The notes below the pieces were generated by a model. The model did no database searches. It was not told where the DNA came from and worked only from the letters and a program-made list of their open reading frames with translations. Below are positions 4,846 through 49,434 of a stretch of 49,534 bases of DNA, piece after piece. Each line of letters opens with the position of its first letter. Within the stretch, counting starts at the first letter, position 1. Position numbers and translations under genes: made by a program. Origin of the DNA: a virus (Duplodnaviria; Caudoviricetes); IMG/VR virus record IMGVR_UViG_3300029822_000015, positions 1 through 49,534 of that record. One strand, given 5' to 3'.

Positions 4846-6057
4846 TTAATAGGCTAACTTAAATTTTGAAGTAATACAAATGTTCTCACTAGCATTAATA
4901 TCTCTATCTAACATAGATTTGCAATTAGGACAAGTCCACTTTCTTACGCTAAGAAATTTTTGGCCCATATTTCTAAACTCTTCATTATAGAATCCACATT
5001 GAGAACATGTCTTAGAGCTGGGATAAAACCTGTCTACCAAATGTACTGGTATTCCCAACCATTGACATTTATTAACTAGTCTAATCCGAAATCTGTAAAA
5101 CTTCTGTTGCTGAACTTGCTTAGCTAAATGGTGATTTTTAATCATTCCACTAACGTTTAAATCCTCTATCGCTATATACTGTGGCTTGGTTCTCACCACA
5201 TTGGCAATAATTTTATCCTGATAGTCGTTTAAAGCATTAGTGATCCTTCCATTTAGCTTAAGAATTTTATCTTGTGTCTCTGACAGGTTGAAATCAGTAG
5301 TGGCTCTCCTTTCGTATTTGTTTTCTCTCAGTCTTTGTTTATAGTCCTGATACTGACGGGACTCTTTTCTTTGTAGCCTTCTTAATCTTTTCCTAAGCCT
5401 TTTTAATCTAGTAGACTTATTAAGATTCTTATAGACTGTACCATTATTTAATATGGCAAAGTCTTTAATGCCTAAGTCTATTCCAATAGATTCTCCGGTA
5501 AGATTAAGTTTACTAAAATCTGGTTGCTCTACTAAAACAGTTAGATAGTACCTACCCGCCCTCTCTTTTATTCTACCAGAGACAACCCTAAAATCATCAC
5601 CTACTGGAATATACCCCTGCTCTTTGTATCTAACAAATCCTATCTTAGGCAACTTTATTTGATAAGTATCATACCTAACATGTTGAGACTTACCATTAGC
5701 ACAAAAGTAATAGGAACCTTGATGCTTTCTAAGACTTCTAAATTTAGGTTTCCCTCTTTTGTGTTTAAAGAATGCTTTCATGTTGGTATCAGCATCTATC
5801 ATGGCTTGTTTAACGTGTTTAGAATAATATTCCTTTATCCATAAGTCGCTAGGATTATCCTTTAAATACTGGTTATTAAACCAAGTAGAAAAAGTATAAG
5901 CACTCATATATGATTTGGGATCATGCGTTTCTTGGTAGTTTTTACTATTTATTTCAAGAAATTTATTGTAAGCCCAACGACTAACACCAATATAAGAATC
6001 AATCTGTTGCTTTTGAGTCTTATTTAGTTTTAATTCAACTTTATATGCTATTTGCAT
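4846..6057 (-). CDS. tnpB: RNA-guided endonuclease TnpB (IS607 OrfB)
   Basis: RuvC motifs IGIDLG, IAIEDL and DRDINA; Zn ribbon CSQC...CPNC. Confidence 0.95.
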   Translation of the reverse strand: MQIAYKVELKLNKTQKQQIDSYIGVSRWAYNKFLEINSKNYQETHDPKSYMSAYTFSTWFNNQYLKDNPSDLWIKEYYSKHVKQAMIDADTNMKAFFKHKRGKPKFRSLRKHQGSYYFCANGKSQHVRYDTYQIKLPKIGFVRYKEQGYIPVGDDFRVVSGRIKERAGRYYLTVLVEQPDFSKLNLTGESIGIDLGIKDFAILNNGTVYKNLNKSTRLKRLRKRLRRLQRKESRQYQDYKQRLRENKYERRATTDFNLSETQDKILKLNGRITNALNDYQDKIIANVVRTKPQYIAIEDLNVSGMIKNHHLAKQVQQQKFYRFRIRLVNKCQWLGIPVHLVDRFYPSSKTCSQCGFYNEEFRNMGQKFLSVRKWTCPNCKSMLDRDINASENICITSKFKLAY

Positions 6058-6638
6058 TTAAAGTCATCCCCAACCTTTTTCTTGTATTTTCTTAATCCAT
6101 AAACTCGGCAAGAAAATACATGAATAATTGCTATTAAGTCATCAACAACTTCCTGCTCTGGAGAAGTTTTTTCATTATTAACAACTATTAGGTTAGTTTG
6201 ATGCTTTTTACACAGTTGCTCAAACCATTCAAACCCGAATCTAACAAATCTATCCTTATAAGAAACATAGATGTTATCTACTTTATCCTGCATAACCATG
6301 TCAAGTAGTTCATTCCACTTTTTGCGTTTATAATTCATATCAGAACCAATATCAGTTAGGCAGTCATCAACTATAATTCCTTTAGCATTTGTATACTGCT
6401 TAAGAAATTCAATCTGATTCTCTAAATCATCCTTTTGATTTCTAGTGGATACCCTAGCATAAATATATGACTTTTTCTGATTTTTACTAGAAATACCCAT
6501 ATAGTCATTGTAGTCATCCTCTGTATAGAAACGATGATTGCCTTTAGTTCTTTTAGCAATTAGCTTACCTGTATTATCCCAGTTACGAAGAGTTTGCTCT
6601 GATACACCTATTCTATTTGAAAATTCTGCTGGTTTCAT
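6048..6638 (-). CDS. tnpA: IS607 transposase (MerR-type HTH + serine recombinase)
   Basis: GVSEQTLRNWD HTH, YARVS catalytic motif, KDRFVRFGF, DDLIAIIHVFSCRVYGLR. Confidence 0.95.
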   Translation of the reverse strand: MKPAEFSNRIGVSEQTLRNWDNTGKLIAKRTKGNHRFYTEDDYNDYMGISSKNQKKSYIYARVSTRNQKDDLENQIEFLKQYTNAKGIIVDDCLTDIGSDMNYKRKKWNELLDMVMQDKVDNIYVSYKDRFVRFGFEWFEQLCKKHQTNLIVVNNEKTSPEQEVVDDLIAIIHVFSCRVYGLRKYKKKVGDDFKCK

Positions 6639-36441: not shown

Positions 36442-37956
36442 TCATGCTAGCTCCATTCTATCAGCAATCGCCTTAATAACGGGCACTGTCACACTATTAC
36501 CAGCCTGCTTGTATAATTGACTGTCACTTAATCTAGCTTGTTTTGCACGATTGAACGCCCAATCTGGGAACCCTTGTAAGCGCCACGCTTCTAATGGGGT
36601 TATTTTCCTTATACGCCACTTACTTTGTTTTTGTGATACAAAGGATCCCCGTATTTTTTCCATCTGATGTAATGTTTGTTGCAAAGATGGTATCCTTTTG
36701 CTAGCTTTCCACAAATTTTGCATATATTCCTTTTTCTGTGTTGCTTCATGTGGCAACTTCTGCACAAAGCAATTAAATTCTCTGGTGAATTGTTCTGAAT
36801 ATTTCCGTCGGTATGATGGGTATCTATATTCTTGGTTGCTCCACAAATCTTGCAAGTTGTATCCGTATCGATTTCTCTGGCTCTCTTGTGGGCTACATAC
36901 CAACTCACATTTCCTGATTTTTGATGAGCCTTGTGATAATAATTGCTCATACATAATCTGTCGCAAAACTTCCGTCGTTGAAACCAGCTTGGAGATTCTT
37001 TCACTCCATTTGGCATAATTTTCATTTTTAGCTCTTTCCCACAATTGGGACAAAATTTTTGTTTCATGTTTTATAAGGTCTCCATTATCCTCCACCAACG
37101 TAGCTTGCTCTTGCCCAGTAGTCAAAGTGTTGGCTTTACTACGCCCAACTCTTCCCCGTCTAGTTTTTGAATTCGGCTGTGAAAGATTAATTGCGTCACC
37201 AACAGTTGCAATATCAAATCCTTTTTTTGTAGCTTCTTTAACCATTACTTTAGGCTCTTGTCCGCCACCTTGCATAGTGCTAAGTGTTGGTGCAATCCCG
37301 TTAGTCCCATATACTCGTCCCACCTGTGGGTTACCACCGAAGGGCTTCGAATTGCTGATGTTACCAACCTGGTTTACTGCTTTATCTGGCTTATCAGTTT
37401 CTCCGTTTTTTCTGACGATAGGAAATACTTTTCTGGTACGTCTTCCTCTAAGATGTCCGATAATGAACAGGCGCTCCCTGTGCTGAGGAACGAATTGGGC
37501 TGAATCGAAAACGTCCCATTCGCAGTCATACCCGATTTCATCCAGTTCAGCTTGCACTTGGAGGAAATCCCACCCTTTGTTGATTGATAACAGGTTTTTA
37601 ACGTTTTCAATGAATAAGTAGCTGGGTTTTCGTTCTTTCGGTGTTTCTCTAAGAAGTTTTGTGACTGTAAAGAATAAACTCGATCGTTTTCCATTATTAA
37701 TTCCTTTCTGTTTTCCAGCAACTGAAATATCCTGACAAGGAAAGCCAAAACACCAACAATCCGCTTGTGGAATTTCAGTAGATATAACATCATTAATATC
37801 TTTGGCGTTCCAAATTTTATTTGCGTTATCATGAATAGCCAGATAGCTTTGGCGTGCGAAATTGTCCCACTCTACCCAACCAACACACTCATGTCCTGCC
37901 TGCTCCATTCCTAAATGAAAGCCACCAATTCCAGCAAATAGATCAATGAATTTCAT
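36442..37956 (-). CDS. C5-cytosine DNA methyltransferase with a ~150-codon insertion before motif IX
   Basis: Motifs I FAGIGG, IV GFPCQD, VI ENV, VIII QHRERLF, IX RKITPLEAWRLQGFP and X YKQAGNSV. Confidence 0.93.
   Translation of the reverse strand: MKFIDLFAGIGGFHLGMEQAGHECVGWVEWDNFARQSYLAIHDNANKIWNAKDINDVISTEIPQADCWCFGFPCQDISVAGKQKGINNGKRSSLFFTVTKLLRETPKERKPSYLFIENVKNLLSINKGWDFLQVQAELDEIGYDCEWDVFDSAQFVPQHRERLFIIGHLRGRRTRKVFPIVRKNGETDKPDKAVNQVGNISNSKPFGGNPQVGRVYGTNGIAPTLSTMQGGGQEPKVMVKEATKKGFDIATVGDAINLSQPNSKTRRGRVGRSKANTLTTGQEQATLVEDNGDLIKHETKILSQLWERAKNENYAKWSERISKLVSTTEVLRQIMYEQLLSQGSSKIRKCELVCSPQESQRNRYGYNLQDLWSNQEYRYPSYRRKYSEQFTREFNCFVQKLPHEATQKKEYMQNLWKASKRIPSLQQTLHQMEKIRGSFVSQKQSKWRIRKITPLEAWRLQGFPDWAFNRAKQARLSDSQLYKQAGNSVTVPVIKAIADRMELA
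36609..37067 (-). CDS. Zinc-finger HNH endonuclease nested in the +1 frame of the methyltransferase gene
   Basis: CPNC...FC..LC; CKIC...DTHHTDGNIQNNSPENLIALCRSCHMKQH HNH core; CKIC...LCNKHY.R...GDP; upstream GGAGG and GGAG. Confidence 0.85.
   Translation of the reverse strand: MKQKFCPNCGKELKMKIMPNGVKESPSWFQRRKFCDRLCMSNYYHKAHQKSGNVSWYVAHKRAREIDTDTTCKICGATKNIDTHHTDGNIQNNSPENLIALCRSCHMKQHRKRNICKICGKLAKGYHLCNKHYIRWKKYGDPLYHKNKVSGV
37374..37694 (-). CDS. Nested +1-frame ORF resembling a methyltransferase beta-type polypeptide
   Basis: AGAAAGGA RBS 7 nt before ATG 37694; W.KSGM...CSLSDILEEDVPEKYFLS motif. Confidence 0.6.
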   Translation of the reverse strand: MENDRVYSLQSQNFLEKHRKNENPATYSLKTLKTCYQSTKGGISSKCKLNWMKSGMTANGTFSIQPNSFLSTGSACSLSDILEEDVPEKYFLSSEKTEKLISQIKQ

Positions 37957-40148: not shown

Positions 40149-40300
40149 GTCAATTACTCGGTAATAAATTACCGAGCTTGTAACTCACACCCCTAACGGG
40201 GTCGTAGTACAAACGTCTGACAACTCCTACCAAAGTGGTTACATCATCGGGTGATTGACAGCACCCGTTTAACTACTAGAGTTTATCCAGTAGCTATTCT
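40149..40300 (-). ncRNA. Putative omega-RNA scaffold of the IS1341-like TnpB
   Basis: Non-coding right end with GTCAA (40253-40257, minus strand) complementary to the terminal TTGAC, and internal hairpins. Confidence 0.55.
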
Positions 40301-41502
40301 TGATTAGCTTGCAATTGATTAAAGGTGGTTTCTTTATTCGTTACCCAGTTAGCGCCAAGGAGTTGAATATTCATGGCGCCAATCCGATCATCGTTGCTGG
40401 TATAACCACAATGCTTGCAATGGTACTCATGAGTACCGTGGTTACGGGCTTGCTTATCAATCACGCCACATTTAGGGCAACGCTGACTGGTGTAATGAGC
40501 GTCTACTTTAACAACCGTTGAACCTCTCAGCTCAGCTTTGTAAGCTAAGAATTGTTCAAGTTGGTAGAAAGACCAACTAACCTGCTCATAATGTCTTGGC
40601 TTTGCTACTTTCTCGGTAGCAAATCGGACATTGGTTAAGTCTTCAATTACAAACACAGTGCCAGTGCCATATTTATCAACGAGTGTCTTAGTTACTTGAT
40701 GATTGATGTCACTCATCCAGCGGTTTTCTCGTTGACCAATGGCTTTTAGACGGTGCTTGGCTGACTTAGTACCTTTACTTTGCAATTGCTGACGTAATCT
40801 CTTGTACTTTCTACGTGTAGCCAGTATCTTTTTACCAGACACAAATGATACTTCACCCTGTTCATCAAAGGAGGTGGCTAGAAATCTTAATCCCCGGTCA
40901 ATACCTACTACATGTTTAAGCGTGGTTTTGTTGAACTCAGGATTATCAAGGGTACAAGAAACATGTAGGTAGTAACGACCACAAGACTTAACCAGCTTAG
41001 CGGTCCCGAGTTTCCCTTGTTTCAGATAATCTTCAAAGCCTTTAGCACTGTAATTAACCTTTTCCCTAGTAGCAATAGTATTGATGGAGAGCTGGGACTT
41101 AACAAAAGACCAGTCACGTACAGATACCAGGTCATATTGGGGACGGTTAAAACGAATAGGCTTTTGCAACCAAGTTAAATCTCGTTTTTCTTTGTACCAC
41201 TCCCTTGTATTTTTATCTTGGTACTTGTAAGGTTTCTTACTAATTTGGTTATTGACTGCTTTGTAGCGTGCCAAGACCGTTTTAAACACTGATTGAGTCA
41301 TCTGTGCTTTTAACCCAAATTTGTTTCTGATTAAATGATACAACGACTTTTGCAGGTCAGCCTGCTTTGGCTTAAAAATATGGTCAAAATAGTAGTTAGA
41401 AACTAAGTTGCAAGCCAACCGATACTGCTCCATAGTTGCTTCTAACAAGCTGGATTGCTTATCTGTAGGATACAGATGGATTTTTAAAGAAATAGTTGTC
41501 AA
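40294..41502 (-). CDS. tnpB: RNA-guided endonuclease TnpB
   Basis: VGIDRG, VIEDL, YTSQRCPKC...CKHC and NDDRIGAMNI motifs. Confidence 0.95.
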   Translation of the reverse strand: MTTISLKIHLYPTDKQSSLLEATMEQYRLACNLVSNYYFDHIFKPKQADLQKSLYHLIRNKFGLKAQMTQSVFKTVLARYKAVNNQISKKPYKYQDKNTREWYKEKRDLTWLQKPIRFNRPQYDLVSVRDWSFVKSQLSINTIATREKVNYSAKGFEDYLKQGKLGTAKLVKSCGRYYLHVSCTLDNPEFNKTTLKHVVGIDRGLRFLATSFDEQGEVSFVSGKKILATRRKYKRLRQQLQSKGTKSAKHRLKAIGQRENRWMSDINHQVTKTLVDKYGTGTVFVIEDLTNVRFATEKVAKPRHYEQVSWSFYQLEQFLAYKAELRGSTVVKVDAHYTSQRCPKCGVIDKQARNHGTHEYHCKHCGYTSNDDRIGAMNIQLLGANWVTNKETTFNQLQANQE

Positions 41503-41894: not shown

Positions 41895-43277
41895 CTATTT
41901 AGTGTTCTCATCAAGCTGGGCTTTAACGGCTTCTAAAAGTGCGTCTTGACCCTTAGCTTTATGCTCGATAATTGCCATGATGTGCTCATCGATTGTCCCC
42001 TTAGTAATCAAGTGGTAGACAACTACGGGCTTAGTTTGGCCCTGACGATCAAGCCTTTTATTAGCTTGCTGATACTGTTCGAGCGACCATGTCAAACCAA
42101 ACCAGACAATGATATGGCCGCCTGCTTGGAGATTTAGCCCATGCCCGCTAGACTGCGGCTGTGCTAACATTAAGGGGATCTTACCCTCATTCCAGTCCGT
42201 GATGTTGTCTTCGGTCAATCTGACCGCTTCGGGAAATCGCTTAAGGATCCGTTCAAGGTCAAACTTGAAGTGATAGAAGACCAGCACCGGCTGGCCGTTA
42301 GCGGCTTCATAGATGTCTGCTAGATCATCTAGCTTGTTATCGCTAAACTCAATGTAATGCCCGGTCGCGTTACCATCTAAGTCAGTAGTGTAAATTGCAC
42401 CGTTAGCAAGTTGTGAAAGCTTACCCGCTAAGACCGCCGCGTTAGCTGCTGAAACTTCCTCGCCTGCGCTGACTGGTAGCACGTAGTTTTTCTTAAGCTC
42501 GGCATAAGTCTTAGTTTGTTTAGGAGTCAGCTCGTTATAGGTGTTTTCATTTATCCGCGGTGGTAAGTCAAGATAATCCTCGGACTTCATCGAAACACAG
42601 ATGTCACCTATTTTTTTATAGATCTGTTCTTCGGCACCAGGGATTGGCGCCCACGAGTAGACCACGTGGCCATTTTGTTGGGCTGGATAAAAATAACTTT
42701 GTCGGTACTGGGTTACATTTTTACCTAGTCGCTGTCCGTGATCTAGCAAGTAAAGCTGCGGCCACAACTCAAGCAAGCTATTTGGTGCGGGGGTTCCTGT
42801 TAAGCCGATCATGCGTGTTATTTTTTGAGATAGTTTTTTTAAGACTTTAAAGCGCTTGGCTTTAGTTGATTTAAAGCTAGATAGCTCATCAATGATAACC
42901 GTTTTAAAAGGCCATCGTGATTTATAGTATTCTGCCAACCAAACGACGTTTTCACGATTAACGATATATAAGTCCGCTTTAACGTCTAAAGCCCTTAGAC
43001 GTTGTTTTTGGGTGCCCAGAATGCAGCTGTAGGTCATGTCTTTAAAGGCATCCCACTTAGCGATCTCTTTTGGCCAAGTGTCTTTAGCAACTTTTTTCGG
43101 CGCGATGATAAGCACCTTTTGATCTAGCACGCCAAAGTCATCAAGTTCTTGGAGTGCGGTTAGTGTGATCAGAGTTTTGCCAAGTCAAAGCCCCATATCT
43201 AAAAATAAGCCCGCGTGTGAGCGTTCCTCAATAAACGTTGCGGCATATTTTTGATATGGGTATAGATCTGCTTTCAT
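41895..43277 (-). CDS. SNF2-family helicase with an in-frame TGA (43185-43187) in Walker A
   Basis: MKADLYPYQ...GLFLDMGL*LGKT in frame with IIDELS, LTGTP, GHGLNLQ and RLDRQGQ; GGAGG RBS and ATGA overlap at 43274-43277. Confidence 0.88.
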
Positions 43278-43561
43278 AAGCTAACCACCTCCTTTTTGAT
43301 AAATCCATCGACCTCTTGCTTACTATGAAGCACATAAACGTCAACCTGCTTACTACGAATCACCCGATGCCATCTAAGCTGCAAGGGCCGTGGGTGGTGG
43401 TTAGCATCTCGTTTTAATTCGACAAAAACCACCCGGCCATTAGGCCAGATGATTAGTCGATCAGGGACGCCTGCATTACCAGGGCTAACAAATTTTAAGC
43501 ACAATCCATTAACTGCTTTAACGCGTTTAATGAGATAGCGCTCAACATCATTTTCAATCAA
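43274..43561 (-). CDS. VRR-NUC domain nuclease
   Basis: KFVSPGNAGVPDRL...FVELK...PRPLQ; probable TTG start. Confidence 0.9.
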   Translation of the reverse strand: MIENDVERYLIKRVKAVNGLCLKFVSPGNAGVPDRLIIWPNGRVVFVELKRDANHHPRPLQLRWHRVIRSKQVDVYVLHSKQEVDGFIKKEVVSL

Positions 43562-43635
43562 AGTCAGCACCCGCGTCATCAGCAATCAATGAATTTAGCT
43601 TTACCCAAAATGGGGTGTTCTTGTATGATCGTTTG

Positions 43636-46972: not shown

Positions 46973-48928
46973 TTAATCCTTACGATAAAACGGCGTTGTA
47001 TAGCCCGCGGCATTAAGTGGCAGACCCGTTGCCCAATCTGGACCCTGACACATGATGCGTTCCATCTCATCTAGCTTTTTACCAGCTGGAACTTCGGCCA
47101 CAACCTCATCATGCACATGGAAGACCGCATGATAGCCGGCTTCATCAAGTTTCTTCATGCTAAAAGCCAACAAATCACGGGCAGTGGCTTGAGTGATGTT
47201 TTCAACAAGCTTGCCACCGTAAGTTTCAAGTTTCATAAAACCGGCTTTCATGCCTTGACCGTAGTAGGTGATCCGTCCATCATCATTAACTGCTGCTTTG
47301 GCGTAGGCTAATTTACGGCCAGAAGGGATTTCGATAAAGAGATAACCCTGCTTCACGTAAGCCTTTAATCGTCCACCAGCGCAACGGTGCACGCCACCGT
47401 CTTCAATGGCAGCTATTGCCATGTCTTGAACAGCATACCACAGCTTGACAATGTGCGGGTTGGCTTTACGCCATGATTTTACTAGAGACGGTAACTCCTC
47501 TTCATCCAGGCCAAGATTTTTAGCACCCATTGCTAACATTGCGCCAACTGATCCTTGATAGCCTAATGCCAGTGTGGTGATCTTGCCTTTTTGACGTATC
47601 TTCTTATCAATTTTCTCTTTGGGGATCCCCAGCATACGAGACGCAGTAGATTTATAAATGTCCGCATTTTGCTCAAACTCCTTTAACGCCCAACTCTCGC
47701 CTGCGATCCAAGCGATCGTTCGAGCTTCAATTGCTGAAAAGTCACAAATTGCTAGATGATAGCCCTCTTTAGGGACAAAGGCTGTCCGGATAGACTGCTT
47801 GATGACGTCTTGCGGGCTATCAAATAGCATCTCAAGCCCATCAATATCTCGCGCCTTGATCATCTCACGGGCTACTTTTAACTGCTCTAGGCTCAAATAG
47901 TTACGTGGCAGGTTCTGGACTTGTACTAACCGACCAGCCCATCGCCCTGTACGGTTAGCACCATAAAACTGCAACAGTCCATGCACCCGACCATCATCAC
48001 ATGTCGCCATGATCATCTTCTCGTATTTTTTAGTCGAACTGTTAGACAGGCTAAGACGCAACCTAAGCGCCGTATTTACCCTGTCAGGAAGATTACCATG
48101 GTCAATGGCTGATTGTACCGTATCTTTTCCAAGGGTCTTAAACGGGCAATTTTGGGCTTCTAGCCAATCTTTAAATTGCTTGACTGAATTGGGGTTATCT
48201 AAACCTGTCAGCTCCTTTAGCTGCTTAGCACCACGCGCATTAAGTTCGTCCATAATCGCCACCGCGCCGTGTGCCAGGTCTTGGTCAACTCCAACACCTC
48301 GATCATTAATTAGTTGATCAAGTGTGTAGTACGACCACTCTCGATCGCTTACCGGGTATTTACTAAGCGCTTCATCGATAGCCAGCTCGGTGGCCACGTC
48401 TTGGCGGTTATACAGCAGATAGGTCTGCCACTTATCCGGCGCATCGCTGGGCAGGTTACGCGTACGACCGCCATTGGCCTTGGTTGGCTTGCAAGGTTTA
48501 GCAAAGTAGTTGATCAAGGCTCGACCACGAGTGTCTTTTTGCTCATCAAGATGCAGCCAGCTTGCGACTCGGCCTAAACCGGTTGGTAAGCTCATCTCGT
48601 TAGCTATAACCATCGTGTCGTGCCACTGTTGTGGGTCAAGCCACCCTTCTTCGCTGTACATTTTACCTAAGGCCAGCCGTTCAAACTGGGCGTTATACGC
48701 GTATTTAATGCAACTAGGATCGTGCAGAAGCTTGTAAAATTCATCGGTTATTTCCTCACCAGAAGCAAGATCAACTTGATGGAGCGCCCCGTTATCGATC
48801 GAGTAAGTTAAGATCATAATTTCAAAACTAGGGTCATTCACGTAGCGATAAACACCAACATCAGGTAAACTTGCTTCCGAATAGGTCTCAATATCGATTC
48901 GCATGTTATGACTAACCTTAGTCTCCAT
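46973..48928 (-). CDS. Family A DNA polymerase with 3'-5' exonuclease domain
   Basis: IDIETYS, YNAQFER, RTGRWAG, CDFSAIEAR, RQKGKITTLALGY and HVHDE motifs. Confidence 0.95.
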   Translation of the reverse strand: METKVSHNMRIDIETYSEASLPDVGVYRYVNDPSFEIMILTYSIDNGALHQVDLASGEEITDEFYKLLHDPSCIKYAYNAQFERLALGKMYSEEGWLDPQQWHDTMVIANEMSLPTGLGRVASWLHLDEQKDTRGRALINYFAKPCKPTKANGGRTRNLPSDAPDKWQTYLLYNRQDVATELAIDEALSKYPVSDREWSYYTLDQLINDRGVGVDQDLAHGAVAIMDELNARGAKQLKELTGLDNPNSVKQFKDWLEAQNCPFKTLGKDTVQSAIDHGNLPDRVNTALRLRLSLSNSSTKKYEKMIMATCDDGRVHGLLQFYGANRTGRWAGRLVQVQNLPRNYLSLEQLKVAREMIKARDIDGLEMLFDSPQDVIKQSIRTAFVPKEGYHLAICDFSAIEARTIAWIAGESWALKEFEQNADIYKSTASRMLGIPKEKIDKKIRQKGKITTLALGYQGSVGAMLAMGAKNLGLDEEELPSLVKSWRKANPHIVKLWYAVQDMAIAAIEDGGVHRCAGGRLKAYVKQGYLFIEIPSGRKLAYAKAAVNDDGRITYYGQGMKAGFMKLETYGGKLVENITQATARDLLAFSMKKLDEAGYHAVFHVHDEVVAEVPAGKKLDEMERIMCQGPDWATGLPLNAAGYTTPFYRKD

Positions 48929-49388
48929 AAGCTTTACCCGCAATAAATAGTTCTACAACATGCTTTTGTAAGCCGAGTTTTTCCGCAATGTCATCGATCG
49001 AAATGCCTTTAGCATGCAGTTTACGAATCAGTTTAAAATTATTTAGTGATACCGAATATTTGGCATATTTTACCTGGTCGGTCACAACAAGTAAATTATG
49101 CACATCATTATTAAATTTATCGCCGTTAATGTGGATGACGTACTCGCCATGGTCAACACCAATGTAAGCCTCCGCAACTAACCGAGACAACCTAAAATGA
49201 CGCTTAACGCCATCCTCGTATGTGACTGTTACATGTGGGTCGCCAACAATCCCTGGATCGCTCTTGTATTCGTGCGCGCGAGCGTATTTGCCTGATGGGT
49301 AATAGTGCGCCAGGGTTTTAGCATGGCCGAAGTTGCTTACTAATAAGAAGTTTGGCACCGATTTTGGTGATTCCCATTTTTCTCGCAT
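48918..49388 (-). CDS. NUMOD4 + HNH_3 endonuclease-like protein with C-terminal HTH
   Basis: EKW...LVSNFG, RLVAEAYI, HINGDKFNN..NL and SIDDIAEKLGL. Confidence 0.75.
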   Translation of the reverse strand: MREKWESPKSVPNFLLVSNFGHAKTLAHYYPSGKYARAHEYKSDPGIVGDPHVTVTYEDGVKRHFRLSRLVAEAYIGVDHGEYVIHINGDKFNNDVHNLLVVTDQVKYAKYSVSLNNFKLIRKLHAKGISIDDIAEKLGLQKHVVELFIAGKAYGD

Positions 49389-49403
49389 AACTATCCTCCT
49401 AAT

Positions 49404-49434
49404 AAAAAAGCGGCAGCGGATAGCCGCCACCGCT
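49404..49434 (-). terminator. Terminator after the SSB gene
   Basis: AGCGGTGGCGG...CCGCTGCCGCT stem plus T tract. Confidence 0.7.

Follow-up and report, generated by a model that had tools for sequence, protein, structure and literature searches.

In phage T4, the mobA/gene 60 cassette combines an HNH homing endonuclease with a 50-nt translational bypass (Manning and Atkins, 10.1101/2022.08.31.505936, citing Bonocora 2011). It has been reported in the accessible part of that preprint that the bypass insert of gene 60, and not the polymorphisms, blocked nicking by MobA, and that loss of the nuclease with retention of the bypass is frequent (10.1101/2022.08.31.505936). In the available portion of a second preprint, a 5' stem-loop is placed 9 nt before the T4 take-off codon, it is proposed that the exiting mRNA, by pairing, drives the ribosome forward, and stop-hops without such aid are said to occur at a low level (10.1101/2024.12.09.627546). 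Synthetic stop-hops in E. coli, according to the same portion and to that of a 2016 review, turn nine nucleotides into one residue (PMC5009743; 10.1101/2024.12.09.627546). As far as the accessible text of this review goes, no natural in-frame stop-hop was known (PMC5009743), and a 2019 review, likewise available in part, names gene 60 and yeast mitochondria for bypassing (PMC7026636).

In this study, we analysed a 49,534-nt stretch of phage DNA, referred to here as the window, on the minus strand of which GAT ATG GGG CTT TGA CTT GGC AAA ACT interrupts motif I of an SNF2 helicase gene. Our reading, which we regard as probable, is that the six extra bases would be skipped by a ribosomal stop-hop and would be a patch left by a homing-endonuclease cassette. 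As in the T4 cassette, matched codons surround a stop within a conserved motif of a replication enzyme; in relatives an HNH gene adjoins the insert and is often lost while the insert stays, the take-off codon varies by lineage, and a 5' stem-loop, here predicted and supported in the clade of the window rather than family-wide, lies about 9-10 nt before the take-off codon. Unlike in T4, the gap is 6 nt (4-12 nt in the family) rather than 20-50 nt and contains no take-off/A-site stem-loop, the host gene is an SNF2 helicase of Bacillota phages rather than the Topo2L of T4-like phages, and the HNH gene lies upstream of an unsplit gene that has a normal helicase N terminus and is without CTE/NTE tails; moreover, the hop is here a prediction from sequence, and the window itself has no adjacent HNH gene. 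By analogy, the locus may work like the T4 bypass while differing from the cassette in the size of its gap, in its host gene and in having no take-off stem-loop.

With the synthetic E. coli stop-hops the locus shares an identical geometry, an in-frame codon-stop-matching codon, but it differs from them in being natural, conserved and apparently required, and its conserved hairpin may raise the efficiency. Short inserts skipped between matched codons are also described, in the accessible part of the 2016 review, for the byps of Magnusiomyces mitochondria and, as a suggested bypass, for the terminase of Streptomyces phage Hau3 (PMC5009743); whereas a rare or unused sense codon occupies the A site in these cases and the byps measure 27-55 nt, a true stop is nearly always found in the family described here. 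The literature searched, which included few subscription papers, contained no report of a hop in phage SNF2 helicases. In prfB, CUU-UGA-C brings about a +1 frameshift; the same seven bases occur at our site, but here a shift of +6 is needed, and the relatives use TAG and TAA as well.

The interrupted helicase gene and its genome

The elements that the initial annotation had read from this site were all recovered (Table 1): the CTT-TGA-CTT in motif I, which is present on the minus strand in several strains, the 30 upstream codons with their Shine-Dalgarno sequence, ATGA overlap with the VRR-NUC gene and PYQ, and the roughly 430 intact downstream codons, of which we count 429 open before a TAG at 41897-41895 (minus strand).

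Table 1. Positions within the window of the helicase gene, its break and the neighbouring features
Feature	Position	Strand	Remarks
SNF2-type helicase gene (PHROG 62)	41895..43277	-	single frame, one stop at codon 31
Helicase start ATG	43277	-	overlaps the TGA of VRR-NUC (ATGA)
GAT	43199-43197	-	codon before ATG in motif I
Motif-I ATG	43196-43194	-	sequence
Motif-I GGG	43193-43191	-	sequence
Predicted take-off codon CUU (Leu30)	43188..43190	-	CTT in the sequence
In-frame stop TGA	43185..43187	-	A-site codon at predicted take-off
Predicted landing codon CUU	43182..43184	-	next codon GGC = Gly of GKT
GGC	43181-43179	-	followed by AAA, ACT
5' segment, 30 codons	43188..43277	-	Q-motif PYQ, first strand, DMGL
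3' segment from GKT on	41895..43181	-	ATPase motifs intact: DELSS, LTGTP, QANKRLDRQGQ
Shine-Dalgarno-like AAGGAGG(T) of helicase	43286..43293	-	about 10 nt 5' of ATG
VRR-NUC nuclease gene	43274..43585	-	directly upstream of helicase; Pfam VRR_NUC
Predicted 15-bp mRNA stem	43192..43260	-	43260-43246 pairs with 43207-43201 and 43199-43192

The helicase product matches the Pfam domain SNF2-rel_dom (PF00176; E 3e-21) and phrog_62 (E 4e-155), and it has the ATPase domain and motifs I-VI by which membership of the SNF2 family is recognized; its best PDB match is the SNF2/Rad54 helicase 1z63 (E 6e-20), the alignment being gapped by two residues at motif I. Compared with plain alleles, which lack the insert, the window allele has six extra bases only. 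Neither the catalytic RNA core of a group I intron nor the splicing domain of an intein was found at the break. Among the 11 stops of the window that have at least 25 open codons before them and at least 150 after, the helicase stop alone has matched flanks, and relatives with 45-63% protein identity show the same arrangement, which is thus not, as the initial annotation had allowed for, a mutation absent from them; the site is therefore more than chance. A GGG sits 6 nt 5' of the landing codon, in the position of a mini Shine-Dalgarno sequence, although the Gly codon forces GGG there anyway.

A read or assembly error is excluded by bridging contigs from several studies, which have at least 31 letters on both sides and no gap at the site: the six bases are present in those of run X1, from which the window itself may stem, and of runs X3, X9 and X10, which represent three further studies, and the X10 contig has a depth of 206 and 30 differences in 501 nt. 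Contigs of X2 and X7 also cross the site, with 21-24 letters only on one side. The six bases are missing from the contig of X19, the sole run recorded as RNA (depth 4; 21 differences in 352 nt), and from that of X14, which is distant and has about 9 letters on one side. Twelve of the 20 runs, having a small share, were left out of this contig evidence. In the 3' segment, strain X2 differs from the window by 27 changes, 23 of them synonymous and 4 nonsynonymous. Several strains show a 3-nt deletion polymorphism at 43280, between the Shine-Dalgarno sequence and the helicase start. In addition, at about 43298 loose ends occur to either side in runs X3 and X7, beside TTGAT (43296-43300), which we take to be an IS200/IS605-like end motif, and some strains seem to carry an insertion of this kind at the VRR-NUC end, just upstream of the helicase start.

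The helicase belongs to a PolA, primase, VRR-NUC and SNF2 module of the 49.5-kb phage contig, which looks like a circularly permuted, nearly complete genome. An SSB-like ORF spans the contig ends (49445-49534 and 1-about 480, minus strand), with a short piece apparently missing, and the contig would therefore be a circular genome cut there. Among the ORFs scanned no lysogeny integrase was found, only an IS-type transposase. The runs with matching contigs are mostly fermentation metagenomes, and the host is presumably a lactic-acid bacterium. A C5 DNA methyltransferase gene (36442-37956, minus strand) contains two nested same-strand ORFs in other frames, one HNH-like (36609-37067) and the other a second methyltransferase-like ORF (37374-37832, phrog_16143). 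TnpB genes are located at 4846-6638 and 40294-41502 (both minus strand); one is accompanied by a serine-recombinase-like transposase, a pair that, from its family features, we assume to be IS607-like, and the other, a solo gene, lies just downstream of the helicase region. A free-standing HNH gene (48918-49430, minus strand) overlaps the PolA start and is a weak match (32 bits) to the profile of the helicase-cassette HNH.

Inserts at motif I in related helicases

Hundreds of related phage helicase genes have 4-12-base versions of the insert at motif I. An exact scan for DMGL-TRR-LGKT gave 15 viral loci, 15/15 with true stops, with CTN flanks and 402-439 open codons after the stop. When any two codons were permitted, helicases accounted for 75/120 viral loci (45/64 parts of the collection) and 43/120 genome loci (44/64 parts), the non-helicase matches (45/120 and 77/120) being dropped before the counts; a stop was present in 118/118 of these helicase matches and a sense two-codon insert in 0/118, and most are Gly-stop-Gly after the second Gly of DMGLGKT. 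The first-Gly register provided 24 of 35 matches (11/35 dropped as non-helicase), Met-stop-Met was seen in one case and Asp-stop-Gly in two, and inserts after the Lys or Thr of GKT were found in 0/11 matches. In a metagenome scan open to TAG and to sense codons with a last base other than A, there were 9 matches, namely 3 with TAG, 1 sense helicase and 5 unrelated (5/9 dropped). The sense helicase, L460, is a GL duplication of low coverage (0.99) in a gene that is broken 19 codons later. A false positive (L246) and a gene cut by a contig end (L637) were also dropped, and the DMYMG and DMDMG matches (L455, L456, L458) were judged by their spacing from the Q-motif to be plain genes.

In the second-Gly register, for which a variable-gap scan covered 28/64 parts, the gaps measure 5 nt (55 cases), 6 (31), 7 (8), 8 (1), 9 (4), 10 (3) and 12 (1), and while the scan would have accepted TGG in the distinct five-nt cases, 55/55 of them form TAG. 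The initial annotation had recommended aligning homologues for matched codons around the stop, and when this was done with 197 distinct cores, the first two bases of the flanking codons matched in 193, with 3 mismatches and 1 core without a stop. In the Leu register (n=17) the take-off codon is CTT in 14 and CTG in 3, never TTR, and the landing codon is CTN in 17/17; its stops are TAG (8), TGA (7) and TAA (2), which makes the sensitivity to RF2 that had been suggested for the site unlikely. The Gly cases combine a GGY take-off codon with a GGA landing codon in 45/91, a two-of-three match. Across the family, the stop is followed by GGN or by CTT/CTA/CTC/CTG, most of which are not start codons. 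The first Gly codon in the second-Gly register is GGC in 66/70 insert genes versus 14/75 plain genes, and the take-off codon is GGY in 68/70. This GGC bias could be cassette inheritance; a 3-bp C(YUNG)G hairpin explaining both the bias and the GGY take-off is only an idea.

Exceptions to the match are the unmatched landings of L106, L453 and L457 and the two 4-nt gaps of L656 and L657, and L500 has a sense codon in place of the stop. The odd forms seen in L453, L457, L106, L656, L657, L500 and L623 comprise Asp-stop-Gly, Leu-stop-Pro, the 4-nt gaps, a CTG codon in the A site and phage phiPaco; such unmatched or stop-less gaps are natural tests of the latitude of landing. A first-Gly form was also observed in a longer gene of a different SNF2 subfamily (L300:1801, IADDMG*GLGKT, 594+ codons after the stop).

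As the pattern scans impose much of the stop and match form, samples free of this bias carry particular weight. Of the scorable prophage genes matched in 400 Lactobacillales and 398 scored Clostridia genomes (assigned to these groups by their centre records; two centre genomes dropped, G510 and G770 unscored), 3/32 and 5/37, that is 8/69, are broken at the site. The stop comes right after a Gly in 7/8 of them, and two, the L656 and L657 genes, have a 4-nt gap with an unmatched landing; inserts longer than about 14 nt were covered only in these 69 genes. The hosts named in the genome matches are mostly Bacillota, and none of the GenBank phages among the best 60 of 63 and the best 60 of 685 records has the Leu form. 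With regard to the origin of the inserts, tandem duplication of GL/LG as the sole source leaves the 5-12-nt gaps and DMG*GTGKT unexplained, and a TnpB or IS footprint seems unlikely, given that stop, length and register vary and that TGG was never seen.

Proposed passage of the ribosome across the stop

According to the stop-hop reading, the peptidyl-tRNA-Leu would lift off the first CUU with the stop in the A site, slide by six bases and re-pair at the second CUU, with translation resuming at GGC. The predicted product is a helicase with a normal DMGLGKT loop and the junction peptide SHAGLFLDMGLGK. We favour re-pairing of the P-site tRNA because it alone covers, with one rule, in-frame and out-of-frame gaps, the take-off codons, the A-site stop and the matched landing. 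A matched-codon hop giving DMGLGKT had already been put forward in the initial annotation; it gains strong support from the comparison of relatives, the protein being still a prediction, and that account, right on the core of the hop, was silent on the 5' hairpin and on the spread through the family. The efficiency of the hop and any regulatory use that it may have are presumptive.

The 5' segment has a fold z of -3.3. A single base separates its outer 15-bp stem from the take-off codon, and the inner helix stops 10 nt short of that codon; the local fold at the gap has a z of -1.3 only. In eight insert-bearing Leu-register genes, which were picked after their folds had been seen and whose kinship inflates the covariation counts, 97.5% of cells are paired (0/500 shuffles) and three pairs have changed on both sides; in seven plain relatives, 73% of cells are paired (385/500 shuffles). 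Two strain SNPs on the stem keep the pairing (A-U to G-U). The hairpin is found in 7/15 Leu-register genes versus 5/75, a post hoc and kin-biased comparison. It is absent as a family-wide feature (median z -0.37 versus -0.31, p 0.56), and 102 insert and 75 plain genes do not differ in 5' or 3' RNA structure. By analogy with the pairing proposed for T4, the 15-bp hairpin would zip up as the mRNA exits the ribosome and may help to push the ribosome forward. A plain allele, L474:1507-1590, retains most of the 5' hairpin; it is perhaps a revertant, as X19 perhaps is too.

Several other explanations for the break have been considered. It is quite unlikely that the six bases are removed before translation, either by RNA micro-splicing or by a deletion between short direct repeats in a fraction of the DNA copies. 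This would agree with the 94%-identical X19 contig from RNA, which is without the 6 nt where the strictly bridging DNA runs keep them (4/4), and the matched codons do double as 2-3-nt direct repeats; however, X19 is one contig at that low depth, from an oligo-dT library whose sample has no DNA counterpart among the runs, and some close kin are plain in any case (L022, L400, Wes44). Furthermore, the 4-12-nt gaps share no ends except a stop exactly at the A-site position, an intron or intein would not fit, and we know of no bacterial machinery for such micro-splicing.

The inserts might instead be recurrent scars at an endonuclease target in a helicase that is dispensable, leaving dead or nearly dead alleles, which we hold to be very unlikely. 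Plain and insert alleles interleave on a tree of plain genes from 1/64 parts of the collection and selected insert genes, in which independent origins are not countable; this implies repeated gain, loss or transfer, and the scatter of insert alleles among plain ones would suit dead alleles, as would the unmatched landings. Downstream frames of complete genes are intact in 16/16 Leu, 20/20 first-Gly, 60/66 second-Gly and 91/93 plain cases, the broken ones being 6/66 complete six-nt Gly-register genes versus 2/93 plain genes. Against this, the median dN/dS downstream of the break is 0.04 (36 insert pairs) versus 0.065 (11 plain pairs), and the pooled upstream value is 0.075 (35 insert pairs, matching 22 codons) versus 0.061 (10 plain pairs). 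On these values, which lie near 0.04-0.08 on both sides of the break, purifying selection is judged to act on both gene halves; with alleles interleaved on the tree, pairwise dN/dS is weaker as proof and may partly predate the insert. Random scars would in addition be mostly sense or unmatched, contrary to the scans reported above, in which sense inserts are lacking and every five-nt gap forms TAG. Strains from several studies, differing by as much as 6%, keep the patch, the compensated hairpin accompanies it, and the GGC bias of the neighbouring Gly codon is likewise hard to reconcile with dead alleles.

Readthrough of the stop in the six-base allele, yielding DMGL-X-LGKT with two extra P-loop residues, is highly improbable. 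The six-base gap keeps the frame and UGA-C is a leaky stop context, but readthrough is impossible for relatives with 5-, 7-, 8- and 10-nt gaps and predicts sense versions, which are nearly absent; in alignments with SNF2 proteins of solved structure a gap of two residues falls at motif I, and the matching Leu codon would be left unexplained. We find it hardly credible that the gene is split and yields two products that assemble, a peptide of 30 residues and a C-terminal protein with a start of its own. There is precedent, in the accessible part of one preprint, in NrdA and Topo2L pieces made by homing endonucleases (10.1101/2022.08.31.505936), and in phiPaco, annotated as split, a TTG overlaps the stop and a restart there is possible; on the other hand, the family lacks a start codon after the stop in most members, the break falls in the middle of the P-loop with no terminal extensions added, and the first GTG-started ORF of the window gene (43130) lacks GKT. 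Reassignment of the stop was rejected, with the long minus-strand frames of the window ending in TAA (17), TAG (17) and TGA (12) and all three stops occurring at the site in relatives, and so was a +1 frameshift: the prfB-like shifty-stop bases are there, as the initial annotation had remarked, but the +1 frame after CUU-U (GAC TTG GCA AAA CTC TGA) closes after five codons, not the four it had counted.

A probable link to homing endonucleases

In 25/99 dereplicated insert genes versus 0/66 plain genes (p 8e-7), the 850 nt upstream contain an HNH gene, as detected with a profile derived from the HNHs that neighbour insert genes; L040 and L432, which are linked by BLAST to the HNH cluster and have no HMM match, were not counted. 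The upstream HNH is seen in every register, including the Leu-register kin L005 and L012 (about 59% identity to the window), and in the unbiased set it accompanies 1/8 insert and 1/59 plain genes. Relatives place it between VRR-NUC and the helicase, whereas in the window there is no HNH at the helicase site and the HNH genes sit before PolA and inside the methyltransferase gene. Insert alleles without an HNH retain the last bases of the cassette (L009 vs L012, L310 vs L320). No clear tract of co-conversion emerged: in most of 10 pairs compared, identity drops immediately 5' of the site, but the signal is noisy. In Bacillus phage Carmen17 an HNH occurs together with a 10-nt gap, and Wes44 has neither; Carmen17 was plaque-purified and is 95% similar to Wes44 (PMC6430321). 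Paenibacillus phage Pd_22F has an HNH and a 5-nt gap, and phiPaco and phi1605 are also broken at the site. Directly upstream of the insert helicases L103, L192, L212 and L523 there is an ORF6N-domain gene instead of VRR-NUC or HNH. L662 (reverse strand, about 1121), a plain gene whose motif is altered to DCGLGKT, has an HNH upstream of it and may have escaped by substitution rather than insertion.

In the scheme that we propose, the patch would have arrived with a free-standing HNH homing endonuclease sited, as in the relatives, between VRR-NUC and the helicase. Alleles free of the patch would be cut by the cassette HNH at their conserved motif-I DNA, and an insertion would block this cutting; a translated insertion would spoil the P-loop, and only skippable inserts would persist. 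The window phage has probably lost the HNH, or else received a copy of the patch alone. By analogy with the T4 cassette, the patch is likely to confer immunity to the cassette HNH. The association with an upstream HNH points to protection from the homing endonuclease more than to tuning of the helicase level, and a limit on helicase levels, which the initial annotation had offered as the purpose of the recoding, is unsupported as the main one.

Taken more broadly, we think it rather probable that natural stop-hopping is common, in that free-standing HNHs targeting the Walker A DNA in the SNF2 helicases of Bacillota phages would immunise their own allele with a skipped patch of 4-12 nt in about one in ten such genes, and that the Leu-register clade of the window would use a dedicated 5' hairpin for an efficient, minimal hop of nine bases to one residue. 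If the hop is true, many phage and prophage helicases are mis-annotated as split or truncated genes. Programmed bypassing is not known to be established outside T4 gene 60, its one phage case, and yeast mitochondria. The family supplies hundreds of natural variants in take-off codon, stop and gap length, a near-isogenic cultured pair in Carmen17 and Wes44 and a minimal six-base case, and therefore both the minimal needs of bypassing and the idea of endonuclease blocking would be testable in Gram-positive hosts.
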